Notes under the pieces: generated by a model
Databases searched by the model: none
What the model was told of the DNA's origin: nothing
The model's input: only the letters and a program-made list of their open reading frames with translations
Source: Marsupella aquatica
Taxonomy: Eukaryota; Plantae; Marchantiophyta
Assembly: GCA_973895155.1 (NCBI GenBank)
Contig: OZ316897.1
Location: 19,168,168 to 19,232,167, forward strand
Direction: 5' to 3'
Length of the DNA stretch: 64,000 nucleotides
Made by a program: the position numbers and the translations under genes
Shown: positions 2,346 to 52,685 of the stretch, in pieces
Position numbering within the stretch: the first letter of the stretch is position 1
Layout of the letters: each line of letters opens with the position of its first letter

Positions 2346-3261
2346 GGCACTTGTCAAATGACTAGAAAGTTGAGTGAGAGTAAAAATGATTGGGAATCCT
2401 TTGCAAATAACATGAATAATATATTGAAAAAAATGACATGAGCAAATATAGGCATGTAGTACCTAAATTCTAAACCTTAAACCCTAGACCTATGCTAGAG
2501 AGTGTTATTTGGCAACCTTGCATGCCCCCATATATACTCAAACATGTGAAATGTGAATACAGCTTAAGGAATGTAAACACTGTCTTCAGGAGTCCTTGGC
2601 ATATATAGGAAAGATGTAATGAATGGGTGCAAGTATATATTTAAATGTACATAGTTACTTATTAGAGATTATCAAGCCTTTAAGTTGTACATCAATTTAA
2701 TGATGAGACTCACAACAAAAGAAGGCTTGTTAGGTCTCTAAATGTATTTCAAATCTAATATGTGAGTGCCACTAGTCTTTATATATACTACCATACATTT
2801 TGGATGACTAATCATACCCTAAACCCTAAAACATATACTAAACCATAAACCTCAAAATAGTCATATGTTGTTTATCATGTCATTTATCACTTTTGGTTTA
2901 AATGACTACTAACATTTTTAAACACTGATATTTGCATATTTGATTTATTAGTCATTAGTCACCGTCGTCTGAAATGACTTCCCATATGTGAAACACTGAT
3001 ATGACAGAGTTTTTGTTAATTGTGTCATTCACAAAGACTGTCCAAAATGACTACAACTCATGATTGTTGTCATTATAGCAGTCAAAGTCATTTGGCTCAT
3101 TGGTTTAAATGACACTATTGCAAGTATTAGTCATTTTTTGCACCCCGTCATTTTGGACAGTCATTTCAATGTCATTTATGTTATGTCATTTACATATTTT
3201 GTCATTTGAGCACATAAGTCATATGTGTCATAGTCATAAAAGGCCCCATTTTCTACTAGTG
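1..3261. mobile_element. Right end of a CACTA (En/Spm) transposon of the CACTAG type; left end lies outside the window
   Basis: Ends in ...GGCCCCATTTTCTACTAGTG at 3261 (reverse complement CACTAGTAGAAAATGGGGCC). Dense subterminal ATGAC/GTCAT motifs at about 2860-3240. Followed by TTA, the expected 3-bp TSD copy. Confidence 0.85.
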
Positions 3262-3579
3262 TTAGCAATGCCTTGACGGATCTTGTGGCTCAAATTTCAT
3301 GAACCAAATCTGGAAGAAGGAGGGGAAAATCTGCCAATATACAATGAATTAAGCCATGCCTTATGTTGAACCAGAAAAAAAGGACGATAGATTGTAACCC
3401 TCCATATTTACAACAATGACTAGAAATGCATGAGAAAACGTTATACCTTTCAGATGCCCGGGCTCTCGCAAGGCATTATCATGCATTAGCCAAAACTTTA
3501 AAAAACATGGGGAAGTGCCCTACAACGCCAAAGAGTTTTCCACTCCATGTTAATGAGATAGAGAAAGAAATATAAGTAA

Positions 3580-4160
3580 CCCAAACCCTACCCTAAACCC
3601 AAACCATGAAATGAAACCTTCATTAAAACCTAACCCAAATCCCTCAGTCACCCTAAACCCTTACCCTCACCCTAACCAATACTCAAATCCCTCATTAAAA
3701 ATTCAAACCTTTACCCTAAACCCAAACCCCTACCCTAAACCCAAACCATGAAATGAAACCCTTCATTAAAACCTAACCCAAATCCCTCAATCACCCTAAA
3801 CCCTTACCCTTATCCTAACCAATACCCAAATCCCTCATTAAAAATTCAAACCTTTACCCTAAACCCAAACACCTACCCTAAACCCAAACCATGAAATGAA
3901 ACCCTTCATTAAAACCTAACCCAAATCCCTCAAGCACCCTAACCCCTTACCCTTATCCTAACCAATACCCAAATCCCTCATTAAAAATTCAAACCTTTAC
4001 CCTAAACCCAAACACCTACCCTAAACCCAAACCATGAAATGAAACCCTTCATTAAAACCTAACCCAAATCCCTCAAGCACCCTAACCCCTTACCCTTATC
4101 CTAACCAATACCCAAATCCCTCATTAAAAATTCAAACCTTTACCCTAAACCCAACCCAAA
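3580..4160. repeat. ~143-bp tandem repeat (4 copies) rich in telomere-like CCCTAAA / telo-box motifs; degenerate AC-rich continuation to about 4700
   Basis: CCCTAAACCCAAACCATGAAATGAAACC recurs at about 3591, 3733, 3876 and 4019. Confidence 0.9.
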
Positions 4161-7100
4161 TCCCCCAATTACATATAAAACCCTTACCCTATCTACACCT
4201 TACTTTACCTATATAGGCCAACCCCCACCCCTATAGTTATTCTAAACTTCACCCTAACCCCTAAATTGAGGCCCTTTTTAAAACTTAAGCAAAAATTGTA
4301 CCCCCTCAATTAGAACCAAATCCAACCCTATATCATGTTACACCCCAACCCAAACACTTACATTAGAAACCCAACCCCTTTAAAAAAACCACAATTAAAC
4401 CCCCCAACTAAAAACCAAACCCAATCCCTTTAAAAAACAACCACAATTCAACCCCTCAACTAAAACCAAACCCAACCCATGTAATTACTCACAACCTAAT
4501 GCAAACCTCTACCTTGAACCCTAAGCCAAACCCATTAATTTAAACCCAACCCTTTTATTCCAACCTAACCCAAGTTTAACCCCCTTAATTAAACCAAATA
4601 CTCCTAGATTAAAACCAAATATAAACCTAACCTTTAATTAAACCCAAACCTTTGTTAACTTATATTCTAGTTATTCCTTACAACCCAAACATCCATTGAC
4701 ACCCCTTCCATGTTAACTAATGGGCACTTAACATACCTTAAATATCGTTTGACAAACCTTAATAGCCGTTTGACACCCCAAAGTATTTTCCAACCCTAAA
4801 CCGATAAGACTTGCCTCGCAAATTATTTCACAAGTTAGAGAATCTTTTTGCGAACCTATAGCCTTCGCACTTACTTCGCAAAAACAGAGGCCGAGAACAA
4901 TTTTTTGGGTCTTCTGCGGGTTGCGATGGCCTTGCGAAGGGAATAGATTTGGAAGTGCCTTGCAAGTTGCGAGACTATTTGCGAGGGCGCGGGCTTCACA
5001 GTTTCCCATGCGTATGTCATCACAAACCCATTTTTGAACGGCGTAAACATCGGCGGGAGCTCGCATTCGGGCTCATTTCAGTTTTTGAGCAAGACGAGAA
5101 GGGCCGGGGCGCGCGCGACAGTACAAGGGAGACTGTGAGAGAGGGGAGCTATGGCTACCGGTGAGGGGAGTGGAGGGCAAGGTGGTAGTGGTAGTGGTAG
5201 TGGCAATGGGGGAAATCCAGAGAAAGAGAAGAATGCCTGGGCAGACTTAGTGGCCCAACATCTCAATGCTGCACAATTGGGAGAAGTGAATCTCAATTCT
5301 CCAGCAGGGCTTGCCTCTTTGAGTGCCATTCTTGGACAGGTTTTGCAAACTGGGATTGTAGCAGGACAAGCTACTAGAGAGGGGGAGGAGAGGGCCGCAG
5401 CTGAAGAGAAGGCTAGAGAGAAAAAAAGGAAGAGAGAGGAAAGAACTAAGTCGGGAGTTGCCTCTCCTCAAGCCCTAGAGAAGCAGAAGAGAAGAGAGGA
5501 GAGAGATTCAATTCAAAAACAGAGGGAGGAGCAACGTCAGAAAGAGGAAGCCAGAAAAAAACTTCCATTCATTGCCTTGGAGACGAGTGGGACTCCAACT
5601 GAGCTAGCGTATGTAGGGGCTAAGAGCACAATCAAGCAGATTATCACAAGCAATTTCTCACGAGGCATGCAGTGGGGGAAGATTGAGAAGGCAGAGCGAA
5701 AGAGGGTCATCAACCAAATCAGGATGCATTTCGCAATGGGCCTGACATAGATGAGCAATGGTTGGCAGATAAGATTTCAAATTCTATGTCTCAAATGCAA
5801 TACCATGACAGGATGAAGATTAGAGCCCACCTGAAAGACTTGAGATCATACAGGAACTTGCGCAGACCCCTCCACTTCACCGATGACATCTGGAATTTGT
5901 TTTACAAGATTGAGGTGCAAATTAAGGCAGCTCACGAGTTGGAAGAGTGGAAGGGAAATCTAGATCGAGCCTTGAAAGCAAAGGAGGCCGAGAAGCTCCC
6001 CCTGACCACGACCTGAAGCCACTTGAGTAGAAGGTAGCTGAGATGCAAAAGGTGGCCGACCAGGAGGGAAAGCCACCCAAGCGTTTCACAGATGCAGCCA
6101 AACGAGTGAAATCCACCCCCAATCCAGTCCACAAGTTGGGTCAAGGCGGGCTCCCCGGCCTCAAGTCACACTTTGTGAGTGCCTCTTGCTCCTCCCTAAC
6201 CTCTCTATTCCTTTCAGAGTTGTGCAACATTTGCAAGTGAATGACATCCCCGAATGTTCTTGCTGTTGTGCATGCTTGCTTGGTTACTAGTTTAGGGCAA
6301 CTCTGACACTTAGAATTTTTGGCAAATTTTTAAAAACTCTCGGGAACACAGTTTGCGAAGGTGTTGCGATGCGCATTTGTTTGCAAACCCCTCGCAAAGT
6401 CTATCATGGACTTTTTCCATTTCAATTTTCCAATGCCTTTGCGAACAAATGCGCATCGCAAACTCCATCGCAACGCCTTCGCAAAAAATGTGGTTTGCAA
6501 GTTGTCATGCTTATAGGTTCGCAAATTTGAATTTTAAATTTTGTTTGGGTCGTGTTTAGTAGTTGAGGATTTAGGCGTCACTTGTGGCTATAGGGTATGC
6601 TTAAGGGCAAATTTAACCAATTTTAATTGGTTCTATGCCTGGCAGTATCGGAGGTACAAAAGGAAGATATCAAAAAAGCATATTGAGGTGGCGATAGAGC
6701 ATGGACGAAAGTACCTCTTTGCGATGGTAGATGCCGAGTTGGCTACTGTAAGTGTCTAAGTGTGAACCATATGATTAGCATGCGAACATTGTGAGTGACC
6801 CTTTATATCTTGCGGAAACTAATGATATGTAATGGATGCAGGATTCGGATGAGCCTGAGGGGTCGAGTGCTGATGTGAGCAGTAGTGATGACGATGAGGG
6901 GGCTACTCCTGGTACTAGTGGTGCTCGGGGGGGGGAGTAGTCGTGAGGTAGGTTCTTCCCACCGTGGTAGTGGTGGTAGTCGTGTGTCATTCACTACAAC
7001 ATATTTGACACTTTTGCGAAGGTATTTTTGTCGACGCTCTTGTATTTCCGATGGGCGGCGCTTTGCATATTTTGCGAATCAACCCGCATCGCAATTTGCG

Positions 7101-7952
7101 ATTCTATCCCTATCGCAAATATAATAGCTGAAGCGCATCATATCGCTAATAAATTGCGAAGTAAGTGGTTTTGCAATTTTTACCGAAATGCGTCGAATGG
7201 AAAGGCACCTTCTGAAGACGGAAAAATCGCTCGCCGACTCCGAAACTAACTCATGTAAATATTTGTGAAGAATATTGGATTGAAAATGTTTTGCGATAGT
7301 AGTTGTTTGACAAGTTTAAGAATGTCGGAGGATGGAAGATTTGCGAAACGCTGAAAATATGAAATTTGTGATTGATTTTGCATCACAAGTTTGCGAAGAG
7401 TGTAGTATGGAAATATTGAGAAACGAGAAGCTTCATATAAATTGCGAGTCCGGTGAGAGTTTGTGAGCTTCGCAAATTGTTCGCAAACTAAAAATTAAGG
7501 TTATTGTGAGGTGAGACAATGAAGAGGGTGGATGGTCCAATATATGGATGGGGCAGGAGGGAAGAGGAAGGGAGGATGGAGGGAGGTACAATGAAGGATG
7601 GAAAAGGGAGGGAGTACAATGGAAGAGGAAGGAGGGAGGAGAAAGAGGAAGGGAGGAGGAGGGACAGACGTACCACGGAGGAGGGAAACACGAGGGTGAG
7701 AATGAAAATTATGGAATAAGTAGGAAATAAAGTTATATTGAGCAACAGAGGTTAGATAGAAAGTTGCATGTAAAATTCACAAGTGATCACAATAAAACAA
7801 TACAATACATATGTCATGAGTATGACTCATTCAAAAGTGAATGGCAAATATAAATATAGACAATCCTTTTTTTTATATCACCAAACATGAACAAATCAAA
7901 TATAACATGAACAAATGTCTAGGCTGGACCCAAGTGCATATAAATATGTCCC

Positions 7953-10900
7953 TCACACTTGGTCCTCATCGGCCTCAAGGTCATCTAGGTCTGATACAAT
8001 AACATCTGGCTTCTCAGAAACAATGGAACGAGAACGTGGCACATAGATGATGACCATTGACCACTCGGTGTCTAAGGGGTATGGAATGTAGAAACATTGC
8101 TCCAAGTGTGATGGGAAAGCAAATGGTTCTGACGTTTGCCAATGAGATGCTTGAACACTAGTGGCACTTGTCTTCAACCGTGTAAACCCACTCTCATCTT
8201 GAAGTACAGTGCAATTTTGACCAACAAGGTTCACTTTGAACCACTTGCACTTGAAGACATATTCCTCAAACTTTGAATGGTTGTCATATGATACCACCAA
8301 GATCTCCTCTATCTTCCCATAGTGTGGCACAACATCTCTAACAATGTTCCTGTCATGGCGGCTGCTTCTGGAGTCTTGAGAAAATTCCCCTTGAACTCCA
8401 CAATCAAAAGTACGACCCCTCTTCTCATCAAGGGAAGAAACCCTAAAATTAACAAAACCCACAAATTTTTATTACACTATAAAAGATACCATTAATGTAA
8501 TAATCATCAAAATATGACACCCATCCCTAAATAGCCAAAACCCACATGGCCTATGGCATAAATATAGAAGCCAACATTACAGTTATGGATGTCATTAATG
8601 ATAATAGAAAGTTTTTAAACAATAGAAATAACTAATCAAAATAAGGTCTACATGAATTAATAGAGGAAGAAAGGTTAGGTACTAGTGGACCTGAAGTGTC
8701 TCCCTTGTGTCCACATAGCCGTCTTGGATGTCACCACTCTCAAAGGGCCATGAACAATGGTCCGAACGTCATCTGTGATGGTAGGAAAGTGGGACACATC
8801 TCCTCCTTGTGTCACCATGTCATCCAACTCAAGCAACTTTTGCTTCATATACTCATGCATCTTAGGAAAAATTCTTGCTCTTTGACTTGTTCTCTTGGCA
8901 TTCTCATAAAACTCTCTCCATTTCTCCATGATATTACTATTACTCAACATAAATGTTGTCAACTGTGACCACTCTGTTGATGTCAACATGCGTGTTTTTG
9001 TGGCACCTGTTAAACGGTCCTCCTCCTCTTCTCTTTCCTCCATCCAAGTACGTGGACAAGTAGGATCAATGGTGGCCAAGATGTTACTACAATAAAACAT
9101 ACTCTCTGCTGCCAAGTATCCTGTAGCTATGCTTCCCTCCACCCGTGCACGGTTACGTACATAAGCCTTCAACACCGCCATGTAACGCTCAAGCCAATAC
9201 ATCCATCTACAATGCACTGGACCTGCAATGGCAACCTCCCGCACAAGATGCACAAGTAAATGAACCTGACAATCAAAGAAGGAAGGAGGAAGGGCTTTCT
9301 CCAACTTGCATACCACCTCAGCTGCCAATACCTCCATCCCAAGGATCTCTTCTACATATATCTCCTTTGAGCATATCCATCTCAACAAACGACCCAATGA
9401 CCAGATGGCATCTTGCACTTCTTCACTCCCTATACCTATAATTGCCACTGGCAATATATGCTGCAATAGGCGATGATAGTCATGTGTCTTCAGATATCGT
9501 GGCCACTTGTGATTGTCCTCCATCCCAAAAGCTTTTCGAAGGTTGGCACCATAGCCTGTAGGAAACCGCATCTCTCCTATACGGTTCCGAAATTCACGTC
9601 TTTGGCCAACACTCAACACCCAAGGAGCAGAAGGACGATTCTCCACACCTGTGATAGGATCAATTGTCACCCAAACATCTGGATGCATTTCCATCTCCTC
9701 GCATGCCTCCCTAAAATTAGTGTCCTTCTCCCCATAAAAATGCTTTATCAAAGCCTTCCCCACATTTCCCTCTATGTGCATGGGGTCTAAAAGATGGCGG
9801 ATCTTCAACTCAGACCAATAGGGCAAAGTGGCTAGTATACTCCACCTGGTCAAACCTGTCCTATCAAAGGTGAAGGAATCATTTGGGTCTGCCACCCTAT
9901 TAGCTAGTGACTTCCAATGTGCAAAACTTGTTGCATCAGGAATTTCACGCTCATCACCAAATGGCATGTCAAAGGAGGAGAATAGAAGTGGGTCAAACCT
10001 CATCTCATGCCCCATGGGAAGAAACTTTGTATGCCCAATATAAAAAATCTTTCTAATCCATGAACAATATGTGGCCATGTCCTCTAAGCTTGGGCCACAA
10101 GTAGAGCAAGCTTTGTACCCCTGAGTTTGCAATCCAGAGACAAAACCAAACCCTGCTTACATGGAAGAAATCAAACCATGCAAACTTTATGTTAGGGTTG
10201 TCACATGAGAAACATCAATAGGAACTACACATTATTGAAGGGTTGCAAATGGCATGGAAGTCATCTTACCAGGATAGTCATGCATTGTCCAACAAATGAT
10301 CCCTCTCAATTGAAAGACACGTGGAAAACCTCCTGTAATTTTCCTGCCATCATATGCCCACACTCCATTCCATAATTTTTGAAGTTCTCCAACCAATAGT
10401 GCCAAGTAAGTGTCAAAGTTCTTCACCTTTTTTGGACCTGGGATAATCAAAGACAATAAAAGGAACCCCTTCTTCATGGATAGCCATGGTGGGAGGTTAT
10501 AATTCATGACAACCACAGGCCAAACTGATGTAGGTTGCCCCTTTCCTCCAAGTGAATGAGGGCTAACTCCATCAGATGCCAATCCTAGCCTCACATGGCG
10601 AGGATCATGTGCAAAGTCTGGCCATGTTGCCTCAATATGTTTGTGAGCAGGGGAGTCAACTGGCAACCGCATGACACCAGACTCTGATCGATGAGTCTTA
10701 TGCCATACCATCAACTCTGCCAAGTCAGAACACCGATACATGTGCAACAACCGAGGAATGATGGGAAACCAACGAACAGCCTTCCTTGGCACCTTCTTTG
10801 TTAGCATGTTGGGGTCATAGCGAGGCTCATCACATGTTGTACATTGTGTCATGTTTGCATTGGCCCCATGAAATAACATGCAATCATTCACACATGCATG

Positions 10901-12772
10901 AACAATATGATATTCCATGCCAATAGATGAGAGAACACTCTTTGCCTCCTTCCAAGTTGCTGGCAACACATTCTCAGTGGGCAACATAAGGTCATGGCAA
11001 AGTGCAAACATATCAGATAACAAGGCATTGCTTGCCTTGTGTTTGGCCTGTAGGTTCATCAACCCCAAGATGGCTGAAAGACGACTCAAACGAGCACCCT
11101 CATAGATAGGTGTTCGGGCATGTTCCTCTGCTTCTTCCCATTGGCGTTGTCCCTCAGGGGTATGCCTTGGGCGTGGATCATTGGGGGGCACCTGCCCTTC
11201 ATTGGGAAGGTCATCACCAAGGTTGTCGGCACCAAACCAATCAACCATAAAGTCATCCATGGCTCTATCCTGGTCATCAGTTACTTGTTCATCCGTCCGA
11301 GGTACCTCTTCATCAGGGTTACTGCTTCCACTAGCACTTGATGAGGAGTGTGACTCTGATCCATGTCCTTCTTCTGGCATACCCATTTCTCGATATGTTG
11401 CTCTCAATCTCCGTGGTAACATATTTGGAGAGGGTCGCACATTCTAAAAACAAAGCAAACAATTGAAAGTTATATTGCAAAGAGAACACACACAAAAATG
11501 GGCTAGGGGTGTGCAAAAATGAAATAATATTGGTTGTGGTGCAAATACAAAATGTGGCCAAAGGCCATATGTAGTGCCCTTTGATATGCAACATACCACC
11601 TATGACCCTTAACTTAACCCTAATCCCACTCATAGTGAGTAAATAACTCATCCCCTGAGTTAATGGTCCTTGTTGCTACAACTAGGCAATGGTCATGATG
11701 ATATGTCTGGCCATAAGGTGCTGGCGGAGGACCCTCAATGAAAACCCACTCACAATTTTGCCTACGCTTAGGGCGAATCCCCACGGTACTGTTTATGAAA
11801 CCAGCAATATTCCCAGTCCGTATGGGGTCCCCATCTATGACACGCTGCTCACTATACCTTCTAGTGTTTCCATCAAAAGTATCCATGTCCAATGCATAAG
11901 TCTTCCACTCAGGGTGTTGTGCAAGGATCATGTTCCAATGTCTTCTCTTGTAGATGGGTCCACCATAAGGAAACAAAGTAGGCCCCTCTCGGCCGCGTCC
12001 ACCTCTACCACTCTCGGCGTCCACAATGATGTCCTCACAGGCAAAAACTCCATAGCCATGTCTATCCCCAAGTGTGGAAGGTTTGATAACCCAACGTCTA
12101 CCCCAAACCTCTATCTCCGCACCGTAGGAAAGCTGTTGTGGCAAACCAAGAGTCTCAGGATCCCAGTCCTTGATGATAGGGACACATCTGCCAGTGAACT
12201 CACAATCACCCCACCGACCCGTAACCACTGCCTTGTACAAATCAGTATCCCCTCGGGCCCGCCTCTTGGAACGCTTTCTCCCTCTTGGGACAATAACCTC
12301 AACCCCAACTTCCCTAGGACTGGTGGGCCTTGCCGCTAGACCCAAGGCTTTTGAGAATGCATTGCCTATAGCATCTAGAACACCTTGTGATGGGACATAG
12401 GGTGCTTGTGCCGCAGGTCTAGGCCTATTGGATACCTATTCCACCGAAACCAAAACAAACAAAAGTAGGTGTGAAATTGCAAACCTTCAACCATTGAGTA
12501 ATGGGAATAGGGTAGGAAAACTAAGGCATAACACTTACCATATGAGATGAAGAAGCCCCTGCCGTATGACGTCCACAACGCCCATATCTCTCAATATGTT
12601 GGGCACATATGTAAGATTTTTGGGAAACCTGACCCACACATCTGGAACATTCACAAAGTTGACGGGGTGGACCGCGAGGAGGAGGTGCGGTCGTGTGATG
12701 TTGAGGTGGAGGTGGTGTATCTTCATCAGAGGAGGACGAGTCTGTGGTGGAGATTTCAGAAGATGAAGACAT
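7953..12772 (-). CDS. CACTA TnpD-type DDE transposase; exons 12772-12539, 11443-10270, 10152-8691, 8442-7953; ~1119 aa
   Basis: N-terminal CECSRC...H motif (transposase-associated domain-like). IVHACVNDCMLF, RLGLASDG, WPVVVMNYNLPPW and HDYPG (Transposase_21). LDPMHIEGNV, FPTGY, KTHDYH, HLLVHL and WMYWLERYM (DUF4218 region). FKCKWF and EPFAFPSH (DUF4216). The GT-AG junctions keep the frame, giving 3360 nt in total. Confidence 0.92.
11620..12435 (-). CDS. SET-domain exon inside the transposase first coding intron; predicted 349-aa isoform when joined to exon 12772-12539
   Basis: SET motifs HGYGVFA, PYGG, IDG...GNIAGFINS and VVATRTINSGDELFTHY. Polypyrimidine tract plus AG at 12437-12436, phase 0. 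Own stop codon at 11620. Confidence 0.8.
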   Translation of the reverse strand, partial: VSNRPRPAAQAPYVPSQGVLDAIGNAFSKALGLAARPTSPREVGVEVIVPRGRKRSKRRARGDTDLYKAVVTGRWGDCEFTGRCVPIIKDWDPETLGLPQQLSYGAEIEVWGRRWVIKPSTLGDRHGYGVFACEDIIVDAESGRGGRGREGPTLFPYGGPIYKRRHWNMILAQHPEWKTYALDMDTFDGNTRRYSEQRVIDGDPIRTGNIAGFINSTVGIRPKRRQNCEWVFIEGPPPAPYGQTYHHDHCLVVATRTINSGDELFTHYEWD

Positions 12773-14071
12773 ATCCCCTGTAACAAGATATAATTAAAAT
12801 GGGCATGTTATGACCAAAACATACCACAAAATGATATAAATCAAAGTTCCCAAATAATGATGACAAGAAACCCAAACCAAAATGACCATAGCAATAAAAA
12901 AGGTACCTTTATGAGACCCGGGCTCAGCAGTGCCAATAGCTCTTGTGGCTCTAAGATAATTAATGAACCCAATCTGAAAGTATGAGGGAAAAGCTGCAAC
13001 CATTCCATGTATATGTAAGCACAATAATCTGGACCAGACAAGAACAAAAAACCCTATATACATGTCCCCTTTATACATAGTGGCAACCAAAAGTGTTAAG
13101 TACATGAAAGGAACACTTTAGCCGATCATGCAATGTTTACCTTTCAGATGCCCGGGCTCTCACAATGCATATGCATTAGTATCAAATCATCAAAAAGTGC
13201 CGCACCCTGCAAGCTATCATATATTCCCCTCCTTTGTTAGCAAAACCCATGCCAATCCCCTTTTGATTCATAAACCCAATGAACCTCTCTTAAACCCAAA
13301 AGGCTGCAATATAAATCTCATGAAACCTTGCTTTGTCTTATCCAAACCTTCAACCCCAAACCGCATCCTACCTATTAAACCTAAATCTGACTTACACACA
13401 AACCCAAACCTTTCTTCAACCCTAGAGACCTTTCTATTTAAAAACCCCAAACCCTAAAACCCTAAACCCAAACCTTACTTATTTCTTGTAAACCGAATCC
13501 CACACCTTTATTATTTCTTCTAAACTAATGTAAACCCAAACCTTAGCCTAAACCAACACCATACATAACCCATTAACCTGAAATCTGCCTAACCCTTCAA
13601 ACCCGCCTTCAACTATTATCTAACACCCAAAACATGGCCAAAAAGCATTCCAAATATGAGTATAGAGGGGTCCACTTCACCTTTGAAAAAAACCCTTTCA
13701 AATGAAACCAACATTCCCCCAGGACGAGTTGCCAATGTCTTGCGAAGCCGCTTCCTTCGCAAATACCATCACAAATTAGAATTGAAGTTTGCGAAGCTAC
13801 TGCTTTCGCAAGACCTTCAGAAAAGCAGAGCCCGAGAGCATTTCTGCGAGAGAGCGAAGGTGTTGCGAAGCCTTTCACGTCGCAATGGTTTTGCAAAATT
13901 GAGAAACTATATGCGAAACAAGAAGAATCGCAACTTGCGAAACGGGTTGCTTCGCAAGTCTTTCCCGCTTGTACTTTTGCACTCGGCCGCGGCGTACTCA
14001 GCGGCATTTGACAAATTTCAAGCGTAGGGAGGGAGAAGGGAGCTCGCGCGCGCTCGGGGGGTGGCTTGGCT

Positions 14072-16041
14072 ATGGATTCCAGTGGAGCAAATGGAGGTGA
14101 TAGGGCAGGGGTGAGTGAGAGTGGCAATGGGAATGAAGGCAATGGGGAGCAGGAGAGGAATCGATGGACCGATTTGATGGCTGAGCACCTCAATGCAGCA
14201 CAGTTGAGCCACTTAGATTTGACTACACCAGCAGGGATTGCTTCTTTGAGTGCAATCCTTGGGCAAGCCTTGCAAACGGGAGTAGATGCAGGGAACATTG
14301 CAAGGGAGGAGGAGCAAAGGAGTGCAGCTCAACAAAAGGCAAGAGAGAAGAAGCGTAAGAAGGAGGAGAGGGCCAAGGCAGGAGTAGTCTCACCTGTTGC
14401 CCTAGAAAAGAAGAGGAGGAGAGAGGAACGAGATGAGATAAGAGCACAGCGGGAGGAGCAGCGAAAGAAGGAGGAAGAGAGGAAGAAGCTGCCTATGATT
14501 GCCTTGATCGAAGGCATTCCTACTGAACTGGCATACACCGGTTCAAAGAGCACTATCAGGCTTATGGTGCGCTCCAATTTTGCACGAGGAGTTGAGTGGG
14601 GGAAACTCAGCAAGGCAGACCAGAAGAAAGTAATGAGTCAAATCAAAGATTCATTTCGAAATGGAGCAGAGATTGATGAACAGTGGCTTGCAGATAGAAT
14701 TTCCAATTCAATGTCTCAAGCACGGTACCATGATAGGAAGAAGGTAAGGGCCTACCTGGCAAACTTGGAGGAGTACAGAAACGTGAGGAGGCCACTGCAA
14801 TTCACTGAGGACGTGTGGAATGCCTTTTACAAAGTGGAGGTGCAGATGAGAGCTGCCAGGAACCTTCTCTTCTGGAAGGAGATGGAAGCCAAGGCACAGA
14901 AGGCCGGGAAGTCCGACCGAGAGCTCAAGGCAATGGCTGAGAAAGTGTCTCACATGCAACACATTGTGGATGAAGTGGGTGCACCACCCCAAAAATTCAT
15001 CCTTGCAGCTGAGCGAGTCAGCAAACGGCCCAAGACCACGCACAAGATGGGCCAAGGTGGACTTCCCGGCCTCAAAGCACACTTTGTGAGTGGGCCCTCT
15101 CCTCTCCTCCCCTGCTTCTGTTTCCTTGCTTTCAATTGCTATCCAAACCTGCAATGCCCCCCCTGCATACCTCTTGTTTCTTTCTTACGGCCTGCCTTGT
15201 ACTTTAGGTCACCTTGACACATTGCGTGCCTTAGAGATTTCTCGGAATTTTTTAAAAACAGAGTTTGCGAAGCTTTTGCGATGCGGGTTGCTTCGCAAAT
15301 GTTTCGCAAAGTCTATCATGGCATTATTTAAAGTTGTAAATGCGAAGCTATTGCGAAATAACTCGCTTCGCAAACTACTTTGCAAACAGCCAATTTATTT
15401 GAATTTGCGAAGTGGGGAGTTTCGCAAGTGTGTATTATGTTTTAAAAAAACCGCTAAGGGTTATTGAGCCCAGTTTTGTGTTAGGGGGCACCCTATTAGC
15501 ACCTCCATGCATTTTTCTTGGGTTTATAGCATATTAACCTCGATCTATTTTGGTTTTGGAATGTTTGGTTGTGGTAGTATAAGAGGTACCGCAGGAAGAT
15601 AACAGCAAAAGAGATGGAGATAGGAGCTGCGCATGGAGCCAAACATCTCTTTGACTTGGTTGACGCAGAGTTGGCGACTGTAAGTGCATGTATCCCCTTC
15701 AGTTTTTCCCACCCAATCCACTTATCTTTTCATTCCGTAAACCTAAACCAATTGGCGTTGTGCTGTGCAAACAGGATGATGAGGATGCCAGTGATACCAG
15801 TAGCACCGATGAGAACAATGAGGGGACCACGACAAAGGGGCCCAAGGTAGGAGGGAGTAGTGGATCTGGACCAGTAGGAGGAGTTTCCCAGCAGGAGGGG
15901 GAGGAAGAGGATGAGGACGAGGATGAGGAGGAACCAGATGTGGAGGAGCAGCCAGCACCACCTCCTGTGCCACGTCCGGATCGTCGCAAGAGGGACAAGG
16001 GGAAGAGGCCGGCGACAAGGAGTAGGAGGACCCCATTCTAG
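14072..16041 (+). CDS. TnpA-like accessory protein (Ptta/Transposase_24-like); exons 14072-15085, 15578-15679, 15775-16041; ~460 aa
   Basis: Charged coiled-coil, then W-K...F...W...RP..F.EDVW..F and H-MGQGG motifs resembling plant TnpA/Ptta proteins, then an acidic/basic tail. Splice sites are conserved with the paralog at 5151. Confidence 0.7.
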
Positions 16042-17701
16042 AGCTTGGTGGTGTAGTGCCTATGGGATACCCATTTACTTAGTGTAGTATATAGTTTTGA
16101 TATGGGTAGTCTTATAGGGACCTAGCTTGTCATATGACACCCATCTAGGGTTTAGGGTTTAGGAAACCCTAATTTTTGTGTACCTATCAATTTTCTATAA
16201 AGCAATTTTGATTCAGACCTCATTCTCCGTGTTGGACGACAAGACCCCAACCATAATTCAAAACTCTAAATCTAAACCCTAGCCTCAAGACATCTTGCGA
16301 AACCTATGCGAACACCCCAATTCGCATATTTACCATATTGAAGGTATCGCAAACATTATGCAAACCACATACGTTCACAAAAATGCGAAGCCATGTTCAT
16401 GGCATAACTACCATTAACTTAATATCGCAAACCGATTACCAAACTTCTGGGATTGCAAATATTTAACTGCTTGATTATTATCGCAAGCCTCTCGCGACGC
16501 CCACGGAGTCGCTTAAATGTGAGTCCTTTGCGATTCTATTAGTGTCGCAAGTTGCGAAGGTCTTGCGAAAGACCGGATGCGAACCTTTGGGCTTCGCAGT
16601 TTGCGATTCTATTGCGATGCGCGATACTTCGCAAAGGCGAGTTTTGTTTTTTGATTTCCTTTGTTGTTTGCGATGCTTTCAAGTTCGCAAAAGGTGTGGG
16701 TAGTGTTGTAGTGATTAGCACACATTGATGACCAGGGGGAGGAGGAGGACCCTAAGGATGAGGAGGAGGAGCAGGAGGGGCAGGAGGAGCTAGAGGAGCA
16801 GCAAGAGCAGGAGCGCCGACGGCCATCACGCACCCGTCACCAACAGGATCCCCGGAAGGATAAGGGCAAGAAGCCAGCCAAGAAGCCAACCAAGAGGAGC
16901 CGCAAGAGCCCATTCTAGTTATTTTGTAGAGATACATGCATGAGAGTGACTTGTCATGCCAGAGCTTAGGGTAGGAAGAGGCAGCATAGGTTTAGAAGGG
17001 CGGACCTAGCATAAGATATTTCCCCCCTCTTGTCCATGTATAGGGTTCTTTGAAGCCCTATCATTTTGTTCATGCTTTTCCATTTTATAAAACAACAATT
17101 TTGCCTTCCACATTGGGTCCCAAGGAAAACCCCTCGCAAATAATGTATTGAATCCTCTGTGATCATAATTTTGCGAACCCTTTAAGAACTCATTCCCATC
17201 GCACAATATAAACCCCAAGGCGTCGCACTTTTTGAGTCAATTAACTTCAGAACTTCAGATCCAAATATGTCAGGTTTTTGTGATACTTCTAGGATCGCAC
17301 TTTCCTAGTCGAAACCGTTCACAAACTTCTGAAATCACCGGTATCGCTCTTTGTCATACAATCCCCATCAAAACAATTGACCAGTATCTTTTGCAAATAT
17401 GATGTGATGGTAAATCCTTCTCAATATCGATGCCCGTGCGGGACGTGTGTGTGTATGTTTGCGAACCTTATGCGACGTATAATGGATCGCACAAGTATTG
17501 AATCTTGCGAACCTCTCAGCTTCGCAGTTTGCCATGGTGTTGCGATGCCGTTGCGATGGTCCGCGTGCGAAGTTATTAGGTTCGCAAAGTGCGAAGGTGG
17601 TGCGATGCGCGTATGTTCGCAATGGCCAGAATTATGAAAATCAGGGGCTTGTTAGTTGCGATGAGATTGTCTTCGCAAAACCGGCCGATAGTGTTGTAGT
17701 G

Positions 17702-18176
17702 ATGATCTCTGTCCAATTCCTAACAAAGATAATCTTTGTTTGATCAAAGGATACTGACAATCTTTATTAGGAATTGGACAGGGATGATCTCTATCCTCTA
17801 CTTGGATAGAGATGATCTTTGTCCAATTCCTAATAAAGATCATCTTTGTTTGATTAGAGGATACTGACGATCTTTATTAGGAATTGGACAGGGATCATCT
17901 CTATCCTCTACTTGGATAGGGATCATCTCTATCCAATTCCAAATAAAGATCCTCAGCATCCTCTGATAGAACAGTTTCGATCCTCTAGTTGGACATCCTC
18001 TATCGTCATTTTGGAAATAGATGATCCCTATCCAATTGGACAGGGATGATCTTTGTCCTCAGTTTGGACAAAGATCATCTCTATCCAATTCCTAATAAAG
18101 ATCACTATCTTCTACTTGGACTCTACTTGGACAGGGATCATCTCTGTCCAATTGGACAGAGATGATCTCTGTCCAC
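17702..18176. repeat. Array of palindromic TGGAYAGRGAT-S-ATCYCTRTCCA units with linker sequences
   Basis: Repeated GGACAGGGATCATCTCTATCC / GGATAGAGATGATCTTTGTCC units separated by AATTCCTAATAAA or TCTACTT linkers. Confidence 0.85.
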
Positions 18177-19184
18177 TGCACAAATATTCAACTTGTTATC
18201 GAGATACTCACTTGGATTGAGCAATTGGAAGGCTCTGGAATCCTCGAGGGCCGTGTCTACCACATCCTCCAATGGAGGAGAGGTCTATCTCCTCTGTTGG
18301 CTCAACGACCAAAGACACATGAATAGGTCTAGATGGATCCATCTTGTGACACGTGGTCGTATGGACACATGGAGGATCACAAAGCGTTAGATCTAGGGCA
18401 ATTAACGTGGCGGCTAGGGCATAAACTCTAGTGTGAAGGCGGAGGTGGAGTGGGGCCTAGGGAGACTGGAAGCAAATGAGGCGGAGGAGCGAAGAAGGGG
18501 AGGAGGGAAGAAGAATGAGGCCCAAGTGGGACCTCTTGCCTCCTTTACCCCCCCACCAAGGCAAGGCAAGACCGACTCAACACGTGGGAGGCCGAGCTGC
18601 AAACCCTAAATGCAAGGCTGCGTAAATTGTGCCGCCCGACTTAGTTGTGTGGTGTGGGTGACCTAATCCACTCGACCCTAAACTCCGCCGCTACTTAAGG
18701 CTGATCACGCATCGCCTTATCCGTAAGAGTGATCTTGAATAAATGGTATAAGATACTTGGGCGCTCCGGCTGGTCCTCATTTGGTATTTTCATTTCTAGA
18801 TTTTCATTCAGTCTCTCAACCAGGTCCGTTCATTACGGAGCCCCATTGAGCCATTCTTGTTTTCTAGACAAAACATCTAGTTTTAATTTCTTCCACACCC
18901 CTGAAGCATTTAGTTTACCAGCTTACTGAGAACTACCCCTTCAACAAAGTATTTTATTACTTGGTTTGACAACATAAACTAAGTGAGTTTTGTGTTCAAG
19001 AATCATTTCCATTACAGGTAACTTTCAACTTAATTATAGAATATTCCATTGGTATCAAATTTAGGAAAATTTGTATATCTAAGTTACTTAAGGTTGGGGT
19101 ATCCAGCCCAACTCACGATTGGGATCATCTCAATCAAACCTTTCTTTGGTCAAACATTAAATTAGTGTGTAGAGGTTAACTGTC

Positions 19185-19666
19185 CGTACAAGGGTCATCC
19201 CTGTTAGCTGTTTTGATAGGGATCATCCCTATGTGCTGTTTGGATAAGAATGATGTTTGTCCACCGTTTGGATAGAGATGATCCCTGTCCACCGTTTGGA
19301 TAAGAATGATGTCTGTCCACCGTTTGGATAGAGATGATCCCTGTCCACCGTTTGGATGGGGATGATCCCTGTCCACCATTTGGATGGGGATGATCCCTGT
19401 CCACCATTTGGATGGGGATGATCCCTGTCCGGATTTTGGATAGGGACGATCCTAGTCCACCGTTTGGATAGGGATGATTCCTGTCCACCGTTTGGATAGC
19501 GATGATCTCTGTCCACCGTTTGGATATATGGGGATGATCCCTGTCCGGCTTTTGGATAGATATGATCCCTGTCCACCATTTGGGTAGAGATGATCCCTGT
19601 TCACCATTTGGATGGGGATGATCCTTGTCCGCCATTTGGATAGGGATGATCCTTGTCCGCCATTTG
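19185..19666. repeat. 28-bp minisatellite (~16 copies): GATGATCCCTGTCCACCGTTTGGATAGG
   Basis: Direct tandem repeats with the same palindromic core as 17702-18176. Confidence 0.95.
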
Positions 19667-22414
19667 AGGTATTTGCTTTATGGGCCCCAATATGAAAGGT
19701 TTTACTTTCAGATAGGACCACTGAGTGATCCTAAGTGATCCAGACCTTGAATCATCCATCAGTTTATTTTCTTTTTATCCAGCATCCGAAAGTAAGTATA
19801 ATTAGGGTTTATTTTGTTTATTGGGTTCAACAAAAACTTTCAGATTTCTCATGAACAACATTAGTGTTTTTAAATCCAATTTTGAGAGTTCAATTTTGAA
19901 GAAAAGATAGGGTTGTATTGGGGGTTGTATAAACCCTGGGCCCTCACTCCGTGTAAAAGAAGTGGACCCCCTGCGATTGGGCCCTTTTCCTGTTTACCCC
20001 TTGTTATTTCTATTTTACTATTAAAAGTTCCTTTATTACCGGTAATAATTATAATTATTAGTTCAAAATTAATAAAAACTACCCTTTGAGCATTTGCACG
20101 TCCTAAACGTATTAGTTAAGACTGAGGGCCTAGGGTGTATAAATGAATTTTGGGAATATTGTTAGAATCCATGGCTGAAATTGCTTACAGCCAAATCAAA
20201 AATATACAAGGAGTTTGAAAGAAGTGAACAGGTAAGCCTTTATTATTATACTGACGAAGCCACTGACAAGTAAGAAAAAAATGGCTACTTTTGACTTATC
20301 CATGTAATTGTCAACTATGACAATGTATGTAATACTGGATCCTTCAAAACCTATGATGAGCACATGCGCTCTTACAAAAAGGGTGTCCGGTATCAAAAAT
20401 GTGTACATATATAAGGAATCACTACATTTGCAACACATTATTTCTTTCTATGCAATATTTGTGTGAGCCCCTTCATGGTTGGATCGCTTGCATTCTAGGT
20501 AATGTGACTACATGCTATCCTCAACATTACATTTAATTGGGCATTGTAGCATCCTCAAGCTGTGGAGTGATAGTGTCAAAGATTTGGGCTCACTACGAGA
20601 TCATCAAGGATGCGTCCCTCGTCCTTGCGTTCGCCATCAGACTAAAAAATTGGCTCATCATCTGGAGTGTCGGTCCATGCAGCCTCCGCTTCAATCTGCA
20701 GTGATTGTCAATACATGCATGTCCCCGTCAATAATTGATGACCATAAGAAAACTCATATATACAATACATTTCTATATCCTTCGTGCTTGGAAATAATAC
20801 ATGTTTCTTTGCAAAATTGTCAGTACATGAGTGTGCTTTCTTGTAGATGGCAACCATGTTGGGTATATATGTTTGAATGGTCTTTACCTTTCGTTCTGCC
20901 TTCCACTCTGGTACTCATTGTCCCCCATAGTCTGAAAGAGTGGCCAGCCGTGCTTTCCCTCCCACAAAAGACTATCACATTTACAACACACCCAACAACA
21001 CATCCACTTCAGAGCATCTTCAGAAAGCCATTGCACCGCCATGGCATGCATCATGGACTTCAATTGCAAAGTAGTTGCCCTCCAATGGTTCAAAGAAATT
21101 CCTTAGAGCTGTGGCAGTTCGGGATAATCTTCCAACTTGAAATTTATCCAAGTGGGGCATACCCATCGTCTTCAATGTCATTCAGAGCATTGGTGGTCCA
21201 GTTATATATGTAATTTGAATGCGGCCATTGCAAAATCAAGGCTTGCAAGCAAGCCCAGTATCGATCGTTAGTTAAACTGCCCCAAGCATGGAAACCCACA
21301 TTAACCATGATGAGTTCAAAGAACATAAATGAATATGTTCTTGGGTGGAACAATAGGTTGGGGATGTTCTACATAGTTTTCTTCAAATCGTTTGACAAAC
21401 TTGGTTTGAGTCGCTGCCCTGCACCATTCACATTTCAACAATAAGCAGGTGGGGCACACAATGAAAAATGAATCAATACTAGGTACCAATTGTTTAACAA
21501 ATTCTGGATCACTTCATCTGCCTTTTAGCCATGCTCCACCGCTGTCACAGTGACCCCATTGCGTTGGCGACATTGGTTAATAATGCTTTTAACCACCTGG
21601 CTGTTTTTGGCAAGTAGCATTCCTCATCTCATGCTGGTGTTGTGCAAGTGGATCTTTTGTATACAATGATCTTGGGGTTCCATCACTAAGGAGTCTATGC
21701 ATTTTGTATACATGGCAGCCATATGTCCACAGGTTTTTGAAGGCAAAATTTTTGCAAGGCAGCATCTTGCACCCCCTCTTTAGCTCGGCAAGTCACGTCT
21801 GACTCCTGCTCAAAACTCACATACATTAATTTGTTTGCAACTTGTAATGCAACAAGCTAGCCAAATCAGAAATCATATGCAATCTCACCAGTTTGTAGTG
21901 CACACAAAGTTCACCTAAGCCTTTGGGTCGTAATTCCCCTTTGGAGACGGTGGATGTATTTGAGGTCCTTCATCATTTGTGGAGGTGGTGTTGGAAACCT
22001 GATGCTCTGTATTGTCTGATAGGATCCCTCACGCTTCTTGCCATACATCTGGGTTGCTCCCTATATTGGACCTCAACCTTTGCTCTTTGGAGAGTAAACC
22101 GCGTTCGTTGAACAAGGGCATCAACCTCAGGGGTTTCACTTCCACAAAAATGGTACATCACGTGCGACAAACTATATAGGGTCATTTCATTGGCTGAAAG
22201 GGAAGACTTAAGAATTTTCTGAGAAGAACAATAGGGTCTTTTAAATCAAAATTTGAGAACATAAGAACATTAGGGTCCTTATAACCAAATTTTTGGAGAA
22301 TATTCCAACTTTATAGGGGTTGAAAAATAATATTGTTTCTTACATTTTAGTGGGTCCGAGGCCTAAAAAAGTTGTAGGTGATGGGGAGACATCCATATAG
22401 TAAGACCCACAAAA

Positions 22415-25289
22415 CATAGTGACAAACCAAACGGGAAGTGTGACCACCCAACGAGAAGTGTGTTTTGGATTTTACCAAAAATGACAAAAAATCTCATAAA
22501 TTTATCTAAAAAACATGAATTCTAGTAAGAATCCAAAATTGGATTCAACATTGGATTCAAACTCGAGATACTTTCTAACCAAAACTAGAAAATCTCTATA
22601 ATTGATAACTTCCTAGCTAACACTTCATCTCTAAAATGAGGGAAAACTCCGAAACGCCTAAAACAACAATTTCCAAGTCCTCTCTCTGAAAGCTCAATCA
22701 AGGCGTCTCAAAACACACCAAAAACAAAAAACGCCGATCGTCAATCCAGTAGTGCAAAACAAAATGGGATACCGCGTATCCCACTTTGCATTCATTCAAA
22801 GAAAATCAATCAACAACATGCTAAGTCAACTGTTTGGTGGACACATTTACCAGAAAGGGTAACCGATTTGAATATTTACTAAGCGTAAAAACACCTACCA
22901 CAAAACATTTCCTCCAAACCATGGTTGATCCTCACAGTCAGTTAAGTTAACCCAAGCACATTTTGGGGTCAAAATGCAATTTGAATACAAAGTTAGCTCC
23001 AAGTATCCAATCTGGTATTTAACCTCCAAATACTCGATCGCCACGCCGTGCGCTTGGAAATTGAGGGTTTGAATACCAATAGGGATCCACGTATCCCATT
23101 TTTTTGAACAAGTCCAAAAATAACCCTCTCAAAACCAAGGATGAATACCAAATGGGATCTAGCCAAAATTTGCCCTTGCCGCACCTTGCACCTCAATTAA
23201 TATTGAGGTTTGAATACCAATACGGATCCACGGATCCCATTTGATATTCACCCGCCAAAATTTGCCCTTACCACACCTTGCACCTCAATATTGAGGTTTG
23301 AATATCGACACGGATCCATACTGACACGGATCCATGAGTCCCATTTGTTGACTCAACTCCAAAACAATTTTGGATTTTTCCTTGCTCAGCACAACCCCAA
23401 TCACATCCATTTTTTACTCTTTCAAAATATGTAGGACCAATCAACAGACCTACCTAAAAATGGAGGCAAGTACCAAGTGGGTTTGTGGATCTCAACTCAG
23501 ATTCAAAGTCTCGGATTGGCACTCGGTCACAAGTCACTCATCCATTTTCACATTTGGTCTTTGTAAAATTCTAATCACTCTTTGTAAAGTTCTTAATTTG
23601 TAAAATAACATGTTCTTATACCAAATGGGATAAAACAATATGTTCTTATACCAAATGTGGGATCCATGGATCCCACTTGGTATTCATACAAGATTTTATG
23701 ACTTTTTCCTTTCTAGATTTGTGAAATAACATGTTTGAATACTACATGGGATACTTGGTATCCCACTTGGTATTCCTCTTGAAGTTTTGACCATTTGTGA
23801 TCTTTTAAGAAATGCAATCTAATTGTTTCGCAAGATTTTGTCTGATCTCAAATTTTTTCTTTTTCTATTTTTGTAGCACCGAGTAAATTGACTGAAGAGT
23901 CTCAAGCTCTCCTTTCTAACGATATCAATTATAAGGAATTTGGATAAATACTGATAAAGATATGGCTTCCAAAGCGTGAGAGGGTACAAATTAAACTTAA
24001 GTTTTTGAAATTTTGTAATTTCACCCCACAACTTAATGTGATCATATCTTAATCAATTTTTCATCATTTTCATATCAATTCTTGTCACAACTAGTGATGA
24101 AGATGTTAAGTATGAATTTGGATCATTTCAAGATTCTCAAGCAACTAAATAGGGTCTTTGGATTTGACTTTGAAAAAACAATTGAAAGCTTAGGGGCTCA
24201 AAGTTAAGAATGACCCGGTATTCACTAGTTTTGGATTGAATTTCTCAATTTATGGCTTGTGCATTCCAAAAAGCCTCATATCCTTGGATTGAATGCAAAG
24301 TAGGATACATGGTATCCCATTTCGTATTCAACTCCTGAACTTACGGCTTGTGCATTCTCACTCATCATTTGGTTCATCATTGTGTTTATTGTGAGATACC
24401 CAATGGGATACCATGTATCCCACTTCACATTCAACCTCTGCCTTTTAGACCTAACATGGGATATATTCAGAGGTTGAATACCAAATGGGATACGCGGTAT
24501 CCCACTTTGCATTCAACATTGAATTTCTATCTTTTGATTCTAAAATGCGTGTGATTCACCGGTTGAATCCGAAATGGGATACGCGGTATCCCATTTTGCA
24601 TTCAACCTTGAATTTCTTGCATTTCGCACCTAAATGCTTCATATTCAGAGGTTGAATGCAAAGTGGATATGGGGTATCCCACTTTGCGTCCAACCTCATT
24701 TTTTCACGTTTATGATACCCAAACTGGATTTTTGATGATTGAATCCCAAATGGGATACGCCGTATCCCATTTGTGATTTGTCCTCATCATTTCCAAAAAG
24801 ATATATCCTTCTCACTTGTTCAGATTCTAGTTTGATTTGGGGGGATACGAATTTGCATAGAGAGTGTGGATTCTTGGGGGAGCAAGAGGATGCGGGGGCG
24901 AGAAGAAATGAGTGGAAAATTTTGATCATGGCTCTTCTAGTTGTAGTTTGCCCCCATCGTGGTCAATTTCTAACTGCAATTTCATCGCAGCCAGTTAAAA
25001 GTTACTATTAAAAACAAATCTAGGAAAATTCTTGATGGGTAAAATGACCTTGCCCCTTTTAATGCGTTTGTTGTTTTTTCTTTTTGGAAAACCGCGGTGG
25101 GATCCAAAATGGAATACGCTGTATCCCAGCTTCGGATTCAAGTCATTTTTCCTCATTTTTAAAATCTAAAATCTGGGTTTTTAGAGGGAATACCAATTCT
25201 GTATCCAATACGTTTTTGCCTTAGAATTTTTTTCCGCCGCGGGCAAAATGAGAAGTACGGTCACACTTCTCGTTTGGTCCGTCACTATG
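22415..25289. mobile_element. Non-autonomous TIR DNA transposon (~2.9 kb)
   Basis: 31-bp TIRs: left CATAGTGACAAACCAAACGGGAAGTGTGACC, right reverse complement CATAGTGACGGACCAAACGAGAAGTGTGACC. Many internal palindromes of the type GAATACCAAATGGGATAC..GTATCCCATTT. No long ORF and no clear TSD. Confidence 0.8.
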
Positions 25290-28268: not shown

Positions 28269-28666
28269 CCCAGCTTCCGCTGCTCTCTCACTCATCGAGA
28301 GCAATTCATTTGCTGTTCTCAGAGCAGTCACAGGAGACGGTGCTGCAGTCTTGAGAGATGGGAGAGCTTGCTAATTTAGACTCGCGAGTTTTTCATTTCA
28401 TTTACTGTTGTCGGAGTTTTCACTGGAGAAGGTTCGTGCTCGGTGTTCATGCCTTGCTGCAGTCTTGAGAGGCCGGTGGGAGAGCTAGCTAATTAGACTT
28501 GCGAGTTATCATTTGCTGTTGTCGGAGACGTTTGTACGTCGGATCGGAGCAGTCACAGGGCCGGAGAAGGTTCCTGCTCGGGGTTCATGCCTTGCTGCAG
28601 TCTATCTTGAGAGGTGGGAGCACTACCGTAACTAATTTAGACTTGCGAGTTTCTGGCCTGACGCAG

Positions 28667-52273: not shown

Positions 52274-52685
52274 GGGAAGTAAGAGATTTCACGCCAACTG
52301 CTTATTATTCCGGATGCTCTGTCTGGCACTCTGCAGCAATCTGATCCAGAGGTAGAAGTGCTCGCACTGTTTCTTCTCTCTTCAGCGTTGTTCTCAACTC
52401 CCACCTGCACAATCATGAAGTCATGTAACGAAACGAAATGTTTAGAAGGTGTTCCAATGGGAACGAGCTCTTCAGTTAGGTCAAGTATACAGAGCACTAG
52501 GGTGTCCTCTCTCACTCATTCAATCCACTTTTGGATTCAAGCTTCGGTCACTTGATAAAGATGGGTCCATTCATTCAAAGCTCATCTCATGAATGTACAA
52601 TGTAAAACACGAACTGATCGAAATCTTTCTAATCTTTCATCCCTCGTCAGCCGGTGAATCTTAGAAGGATCCAGAACGGAGATAG

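Follow-up and report, generated by a model that had tools for sequence, protein, structure and literature searches.

The window, a 64,000-nucleotide stretch of the genome of the liverwort Marsupella aquatica, contains a complete cut-and-paste transposon of the CACTA (EnSpm) type that carries a SET exon inside its transposase gene (Table 1). The element has CACTA...TAGTG termini and is flanked by a 3-bp target duplication, ATT, at positions 6989-6991 and 16714-16716, the combination by which CACTA/EnSpm elements are recognized. The joint corresponding to the empty site (6990 to 16717) is present in contigs of all four of four runs; given that this site lies inside an older, possibly multicopy element, the joint confirms the ends of the SET element and gives no date for its insertion. 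On the minus strand, a TnpD-type transposase with the Transposase_21, DUF4218 and DUF4216 domains is open in frame. The divergent ORF of the second gene shows no Pfam or NCBIfam match and can be called TnpA-like by position only; it is conserved across related loci with a dN/dS of 0.26-0.33. The older, related CACTA copy that surrounds the SET element retains a homologue of the second gene and has no SET or transposase of its own. The TTGCGA motif occurs 71 times within 3262-17701 vs 11 times across the remaining window.

Several smaller observations concern the same region. The SET element is inserted in an exon of the second gene of the older copy, so that these are nested CACTA insertions, and a third CACTA end with a different terminus closes at position 3261, after 408-bp repeats at 1-2360. 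Near position 9555, Sphagnum-type copies contain an extra transposase intron of about 150 bp that is absent from the window copy.

Table 1. Positions of the nested CACTA elements, of the exons and SET motifs of the inner element, and of the second SET gene in the window
Feature	Position	Strand	Remarks
Older related CACTA copy, host of the SET-element insertion	3262..17701 (3262-6991 + 16714-17701)		Left limit approximate
Complete CACTA (EnSpm) element, 9722 bp	6992..16713		Termini CACTACAACA / TGTTGTAGTG
Last transposase exon, DUF4216	7953..8442	-	Pfam
Transposase exon, end of Transposase_21 and DUF4218	8691..10152	-	Pfam
Transposase (TnpD-like) exon, Transposase_21	10270..11443	-	Pfam; phase-0 acceptor
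SET exon, 271 codons + stop, terminal exon	11620..12435	-	ORF, Pfam, fold; phase-0 AG acceptor
ELFTHY-EWD-stop	11620..11649	-	Y207 catalytic-position, T205 small residue, W209 channel aromatic; no post-SET segment
GNIAGFINS, motif III	11788..11814	-	Asn kept (N154), Ser replaces His (S155)
LFPYGGPIY with Y96 and Y101	11950..11976	-	Y96 aligned to the lysine-channel Tyr of LegAS4
HGYGVFA, motif I, GxG	12040..12060	-	Motif read; G66 and G68 of the 210-aa core
Basic stretch RGRKRSKRRAR	12253..12285	-	Putative nuclear-localisation role
First coding exon, 78 codons: ATG, Ser/Pro linker, CxCxxC-x13-H putative zinc finger	12539..12772	-	Phase-0 GT donor
Two short, probably non-coding 5' exons	~13140-13180 + 12904-12980	-	Predicted; limits approximate
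First coding exon of the second gene, divergent ORF	14072..15085	+	TnpA-like by position only
SMYD-type SET gene, multi-exon	38671-40900	-	Canonical NHSC and post-SET Cys motif

Within the transposase gene, the SET exon falls in the first of the coding introns. There is no start codon of its own ahead of the domain; the exon is preceded by an AG, and the ATG comes from the zinc-finger exon at 12772-12539. The latter is in frame with both the SET acceptor (12435) and the transposase acceptor (11443), each in phase 0, and in-silico joining yields either a finger-SET protein of 349 aa or, with the transposase exons, a protein of 1119 aa, both reading through to one stop at the end. The finger exon itself matches no Pfam family; the finger of a Riccia homologue is weakly similar to Transpos_assoc (E 0.031; one of 136 family members). 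In diverged copies, both 5' exon blocks (12904..13180) persist, whereas the DNA separating them differs.

This layout recurs in 33 related metagenome loci, 20 of which have the transposase directly behind SET, while 10 end too early and three contain a truncated SET without the transposase. All 18 loci that include the end of the finger exon have its phase-0 GT, the SET acceptor retains its AG in 15 of 18, and for the transposase acceptor a phase-0 AG is found in 17 of 18; these loci mostly belong to one close family (pairwise dS 0.06) and represent about two independent lineages, so that the counts are not independent. NCBI gene models in Calypogeia and Sphagnum, which are themselves predictions, join the finger with SET into proteins of 343-351 aa; among the joints listed for runs of unrecorded kind there is no exact splice joint. 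It is likely, as predicted from the layout, that the finger exon is spliced alternatively to SET or to the transposase. Neither the zinc-finger exon that SET and transposase have in common nor the alternative-exon arrangement is mentioned in the initial annotation, and both are central to the nature of the SET element.

Vertebrate SETMAR is a fusion of a SET domain with a transposase, and a single SET-transposase protein of that kind could also be envisaged here, as several automatic gene models (P0028, P0073, P0088, P0104, P0110, P0122 and P0125) run SET parts into the transposase. Such a fusion appears very improbable: the stop after HY-EW-x is present in the window copy and in 20 of the 20 loci for which the end of SET is given, the fused models join at varying points with most losing part of SET, and a search for longer forms, although weak, found none.

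The SET domain and its predicted active site

The product of the SET exon consists of an Arg-rich linker, a folded N-terminal extension and the SET core, in this order, and its Pfam SET match has an E-value of 6.2e-6 (27 bits against a cut-off of 22.4). All the motifs that the initial annotation attributed to the exon (HGYGVFA, YGG, GNIAGFINS and ELFTHY followed by EWD and a stop) are indeed found in the minus frame 12435-11620, and the basic RGRKRSKRRAR lies at 12285-12253, upstream of the interval 11620..12110 to which the domain had been assigned. In homologues, the linker is likewise Arg-rich, the sequence itself not being conserved. The stated lack of pre-SET and post-SET cysteine clusters also holds, with only five scattered cysteines in the exon. 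The description of the domain as minimal applies to the C-terminus and not to the folded unit, which comprises about 200 aa with inserts and an N-terminal extension that is well predicted over residues 11-60 (pLDDT 91-97). In place of the canonical RFINHxCxPN, the exon has GFINS.

The AlphaFold model built on 136 sequences has the SET fold, as had been proposed, with a pLDDT of 89.1, a pTM of 0.85 and agreement of five models; an earlier model from 33 sequences was poor (pLDDT 50.5). Every PDB match listed by the structural search is a SET enzyme, among them SET8 (2.5e-7) and Legionella LegAS4 (3.8e-7), and the structural scores (Z 11.0-12.1) are tied across SET classes. Searches of solved sequences with the single sequence or with 33 sequences retrieved no SET, and a match appears only with the 136-sequence profile, for which LegAS4 is on top (E 3.5e-9) and the next match is at 7e-4; scores for the host-type classes are low and scattered (fungal EZH2 7e-4, MLL1 4e-3, ATXR5/6 0.04). 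A suspected likeness to PR/SET motifs was dropped, there being no PRDM among the best 60 profile matches or the structural matches listed.

The structural alignments end by pairing residue 209 with residues 3946 of MLL1, 337 of SET7/9 and 728 of EZH2. We accordingly place Y207 at the catalytic Tyr position and W209 at that of the aromatic residue of the channel, with roles as in SET enzymes generally and the register read from the ends of the aligned ranges. The alignments thus stop at the channel aromatic, and the stop codon follows three residues after Y207. On this pairing, the core of the SET protein is complete and nothing but the post-SET segment is missing. The hallmarks of the SET superfamily, namely the fold, the GxG, the motif III Asn and the C-terminal Tyr, are all present. 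According to the Phe/Tyr-switch rule, a residue near the catalytic Tyr bears on the number of methyl groups added, and the small residue two positions before Y207 suggests the addition of more than one. Flanking regions have been reported to be necessary for the activity of SET enzymes (PMC3980110). Inserts peculiar to the family, or else a partner, would need to stand in for the post-SET lid; if a SET domain of this kind is active without the lid, this would be new enzymology.

The closest solved relative, LegAS4/RomA, is described as an H3K14 methyltransferase that binds SAM at 424 nM (PMC10653858; bioRxiv 10.64898/2026.05.29.728679). LegAS4 (PDB 8sr6, 5czy) is not only the best solved-sequence match but also lacks a His behind the Asn of motif III (N-F in LegAS4), shares with the window protein the motifs YxGxxY, YA[LM] and N[AV]E[FW]V and a basic stretch upstream, and similarly contains a non-aromatic residue two positions before the catalytic Tyr. 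In a dead allele of LegAS4, as reported, six cleft residues are changed (bioRxiv 10.64898/2026.05.29.728679). When these are mapped onto the window protein by profile alignment, four are identical (Y96, Y119, N154 and Y207), one is a Ser/Thr pair, and the sixth falls within the post-SET segment that the window protein lacks. The two proteins differ in other respects: identity is 27% over 131 structurally aligned residues, with a Z of 11.4 that is tied with other classes, and LegAS4 is described as possessing a post-SET segment as well as ankyrin repeats on which histone binding depends, whereas the window protein has neither. In the Pfam analysis of 136 family members, no post-SET or ankyrin match was found, so that the family does not conform to the LegAS4/RomA type. 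LegAS4 itself is reported to have probably acquired its SET from a protozoan host (PMC10653858), so that the likeness may go back to a common source, eukaryotic or viral, or be convergent.

Relatives, origin and selection

A search with the single SET protein retrieves 43 proteins, the named ones coming from Riccia sorocarpa, Calypogeia fissa (72% identity) and Sphagnum species (about 56-83%, over alignments that range from partial to complete). The profile search of 1.84 billion proteins yields 128 clusters at E <=0.001, at least one of which, P0165, resembles noise; among 30 clusters that were looked up, eight carry an organism name (five Riccia, two Calypogeia and one Ginkgo). The SET tree, with 57 rows, was built without an outgroup from 77 full domains after dropping six faulty models and merging sequences more than 85% alike. 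It places the window sequence next to Calypogeia P0001 in a clade with Sphagnum (support 100/99), with the Riccia rows distant; taken alone, this placement of the transposon would make a leafy liverwort the likely host. Distant members retain the N-terminal finger and several gene models run into a CACTA transposase, which implies that the SET-transposase pairing is old.

Some outlying members merit separate mention. P0163 (Ginkgo Gb_21150) and P0255, the latter with the N-terminal finger retained, represent a distant clade that reaches gymnosperms; in part of its members the Tyr is followed by a longer, basic tail. P0105 and P0114, both from Calypogeia fissa, are very divergent and lack the transposase finger; in P0105, a weak DUF5763-type Cys/His motif takes its place.

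Across the 77 full domains, the motif I glycines are kept in 71 (G66) and 72 (G68), position 96 is Y or F in every one, and motif III has Asn in 69 and Gln in five, with Ser at the place of the His in 68; most of the domains end about 2-15 residues past the catalytic-position Tyr. The same pattern persists in the 47 domains that are less than 55% identical to the window SET: G66 in 43, G68 in 44, Y/F96 in all 47 (Phe in 14), Y119 in 44, N154 in 39 (Gln in five), N166 in 46, E202 in 45 and Y207 in 40 (with five gaps). The position aligned to Ser158 of LegAS4 is not conserved, being Thr in six of the 47. Judging from these comparisons, the odd motifs of the window SET are traits of the family and not signs of decay.

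The initial annotation had considered a catalytically altered decoy on account of the missing His. A non-catalytic protein of this type would hold no SAM and would bind a histone-tail lysine in its aromatic channel, shielding the chromatin of the element or competing with host enzymes. It would fit the lack of a post-SET segment in the window copy and the short tails across most of the family, the absence of the His from all 77 full domains together with the change of the Arg of RFINH to Gly/Ala, and the fact that the best-kept residues (Y/F96, Y119, Y207 and W/F209) line the lysine channel. However, the residues on the cofactor side are kept as well, with the GxG glycines in 43-44 and Asn154 in 39 of the 47 divergent members, and LegAS4, equally without the His, is reported to bind SAM with the affinity given above and to be active (bioRxiv 10.64898/2026.05.29.728679). 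Loss of the His is thus no sign of a dead enzyme, the decoy becomes the weaker reading, which we consider unlikely, and the real question concerns the loss of the lid.

Among the sequences searched, the family has no close kin in any plant SET class, nor in bacteria or viruses. The non-host ancestry offered as one reading in the initial annotation is no more than a possibility: LegAS4 is the best sequence match, but the structural scores do not favour any SET class, and the viral and bacterial scans described below yielded generic SETs or nothing. Pfam detects SET in 92 of the 136 members and CXC, AWS, pre-SET, post-SET, SRA or PHD in none, so that the flanking domains specific for the host SDG classes (E(z), ASH1, TRX, SUVH/SUVR and ATXR5/6) are missing from all 136. 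With a distinct family of 128 clusters and ATXR5/6, at E 0.04, as the best solved match from a plant class, the exon does not appear to be a truncated fragment of a host SDG gene, in agreement with the initial annotation. Nor does it resemble the SMYD-type SET of the window, as had also been noted: this gene, at 39.5-40.7 kb, has a split motif I, PFINHSC and a Pfam E-value of 8.7e-10, while the SET exon has no long (MYND-type) insert splitting SET, no NHSC and no post-SET Cys. The best BLASTP E-value between the two is 0.5, and the family profile misses the SMYD gene in a six-frame scan of the window.

Outside plants, a phage search gave no match to the family, none of nine candidates from viral contigs held up as relatives, and prokaryote contigs contributed two weak motif I matches, with both source genomes lacking a match to the family profile. 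In one bacterial phylum, weak matches occur in 5 of 401 genomes, and those that were aligned are ordinary SETs, three with NHSC. Several giant-virus SET models match at E-values of 1e-7 to 1e-4 with 16-22% identity, none of them standing out. Chlorovirus vSET, which is absent among the matches listed in the structural searches, and giant-virus SETs share with the window protein the short C-terminus without a Cys post-SET; vSET, however, has about 110-120 aa and keeps NHS, whereas the window SET comprises about 200 aa with inserts. Haptophyte-rich SET clusters in the ESM Atlas, at 0.95-0.96, are a lead only.

Over the coding parts, the SET element shows 73-79% DNA identity to Sphagnum-type copies, with unsaturated dS of 0.6-1.4, whereas the Riccia members of the family are only 35-40% identical to the window SET at the protein level. 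This combination of close Sphagnum-type copies and distant Riccia members suggests horizontal transfer of the element between liverwort and peat moss.

Selection was assessed by the Nei-Gojobori method for the window element against 24 loci. The SET core has a dN/dS of 0.14-0.30 at dS 0.64-0.86 and the transposase parts have 0.09-0.19 at dS 0.9-1.4. In recent, near-identical loci, dN/dS is 0.84 for SET, above the transposase (0.61) and the second gene (0.41), and 9 of the 24 SET copies contain stops; such values are expected of dead copies, yet those of SET exceed those of the element's other genes. CACTA elements are known to carry fragments of host genes (cf. the title of a work cited in PMC4158355), and a captured, decaying SET fragment would explain the near-neutral dN/dS of the recent copies. 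That SET is a passenger in this sense is hardly credible, considering that its position and splice phase are fixed across elements separated by dS of 0.6-1.4, that dN/dS between lineages is about 0.2, and that members occur in liverworts, peat mosses and Ginkgo while no host class comes near the family. As a separate observation, the SET exon (11620-12252) has a dS of about 0.7 vs about 1.3 for the first transposase exon in the same loci; possible causes are that element families have exchanged the SET module or that silent sites are constrained.

Possible function and comparison with known systems

For the finger-SET protein of 349 aa, SAM-dependent methylation of lysines is the predicted activity; it would likely mark histones on or near the element and so ease its silencing, a reading to which we assign about an even chance. 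It starts from the position and ends of the element, the open frames, the splice phases, the purifying selection, the active-site residues and the predicted fold; splicing, nuclear entry, catalysis, the histone substrate and the anti-silencing outcome are the steps that it would add. One promoter region would drive the second gene in one direction and the pre-mRNA in the other. Use of the near acceptor would give the finger-SET protein and use of the far acceptor the transposase, so that acceptor usage would, in addition, control how much transposase is made. The basic linker would carry the SET form into the nucleus, where methylation of histone lysines at the element would ease silencing. 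No DNA-binding domain by which the SET form could be targeted to the element was identified in this isoform.

The same catalytic evidence (the LegAS4 match, the fold and the conserved residues) would serve equally for an active methyltransferase with a non-histone target, such as the transposase, the second protein or a host silencing factor, with the finger bringing SET to the transposase complex. The N-terminal exon common to SET and transposase fits such co-assembly, and SET enzymes are described as methylating non-histone proteins as well (PMC10653858). The top sequence and fold matches, however, are histone enzymes, although the PDB is biased toward these, and we regard a non-histone target as rather improbable.

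A bolder combination of the above observations, which we put forward as a speculation with a low probability, is that an ancient CACTA lineage of land plants encodes a separate class of SET proteins, without the His and without the lid, that would be active only once an element-encoded partner completes the pocket, so that methylation would be licensed only on the element; this lineage would also have jumped between bog liverworts and peat mosses.

SET genes have been described in HarbingerS and in MuDR families of Phytophthora (PMC12730594), and SET is also reported in Helitron captures and in the accessory gene PAG2 of red-algal Plavaka elements (bioRxiv 10.1101/2025.02.11.637652). Like the window element, these are DNA transposons with a SET gene of their own and a proposed action on chromatin, and Plavaka likewise belongs to the EnSpm/CACTA superfamily. 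By description, however, SET in these systems is encoded by separate accessory genes, whereas the window SET lies within the transposase gene itself, of a land-plant CACTA element, as its predicted alternative last exon; the SET of PAG2 is, in addition, described as fused to an adenine methylase domain.

In maize and Arabidopsis En/Spm, TnpA and TnpD are described as alternative products of one transcription unit, TnpA being a regulator that binds DNA through a helix-turn-helix, is associated with DNA hypomethylation and is apparently restricted to flowering plants (bioRxiv 10.64898/2026.08.24.746577). The window element resembles En/Spm, as described there, in its CACTA ends, the 3-bp duplication and the TnpD-type transposase, and also in the alternative products, here predicted, and the element-encoded anti-silencing, here proposed. 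It differs in that its alternative product has a predicted enzyme fold and that a further gene is present on the other strand.

Our literature search found no SET exon in a land-plant CACTA element; Repbase Reports, subscription journals and supplements were outside this search and may record the family. The known anti-silencing factors of plant transposons, VANC and TnpA, are DNA-binding proteins. If the histone reading is correct, an element-encoded histone-marking enzyme would represent a different anti-silencing route in land plants. Bryophyte transposons are reported to carry H3K27me3 or H3K9me2 depending on the lineage (bioRxiv 10.1101/2022.10.24.513474). With an intact copy, a small protein and transformable bryophytes, the long-proposed idea that SET genes of transposons write chromatin marks becomes directly testable.

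Other features of the window

Tandem copies of a 28-bp unit, accompanied by related inverted repeats, and another family of repeats, palindromic and dispersed, are found at 17700-19700 and 22740-25140; they are probably the ends of other elements. An intronless gene at 28493-31373 (plus strand) is split over two frames that overlap, the shift lying near 29.8-29.9 kb; by its motifs it presumably encodes a plasma-membrane H+-ATPase, and it could be a pseudogene, a retrocopy or the result of a sequencing error. The minus strand contains an ORF of 570 aa at 44140-45852 and, at 49757-52288, an ORF for a membrane protein that by eye appears lectin-like, with a long Pro/Gln repeat tail. Fragments of an integrase and a reverse transcriptase, labelled Copia-like by eye, are located at 61662-63576 on the plus strand.
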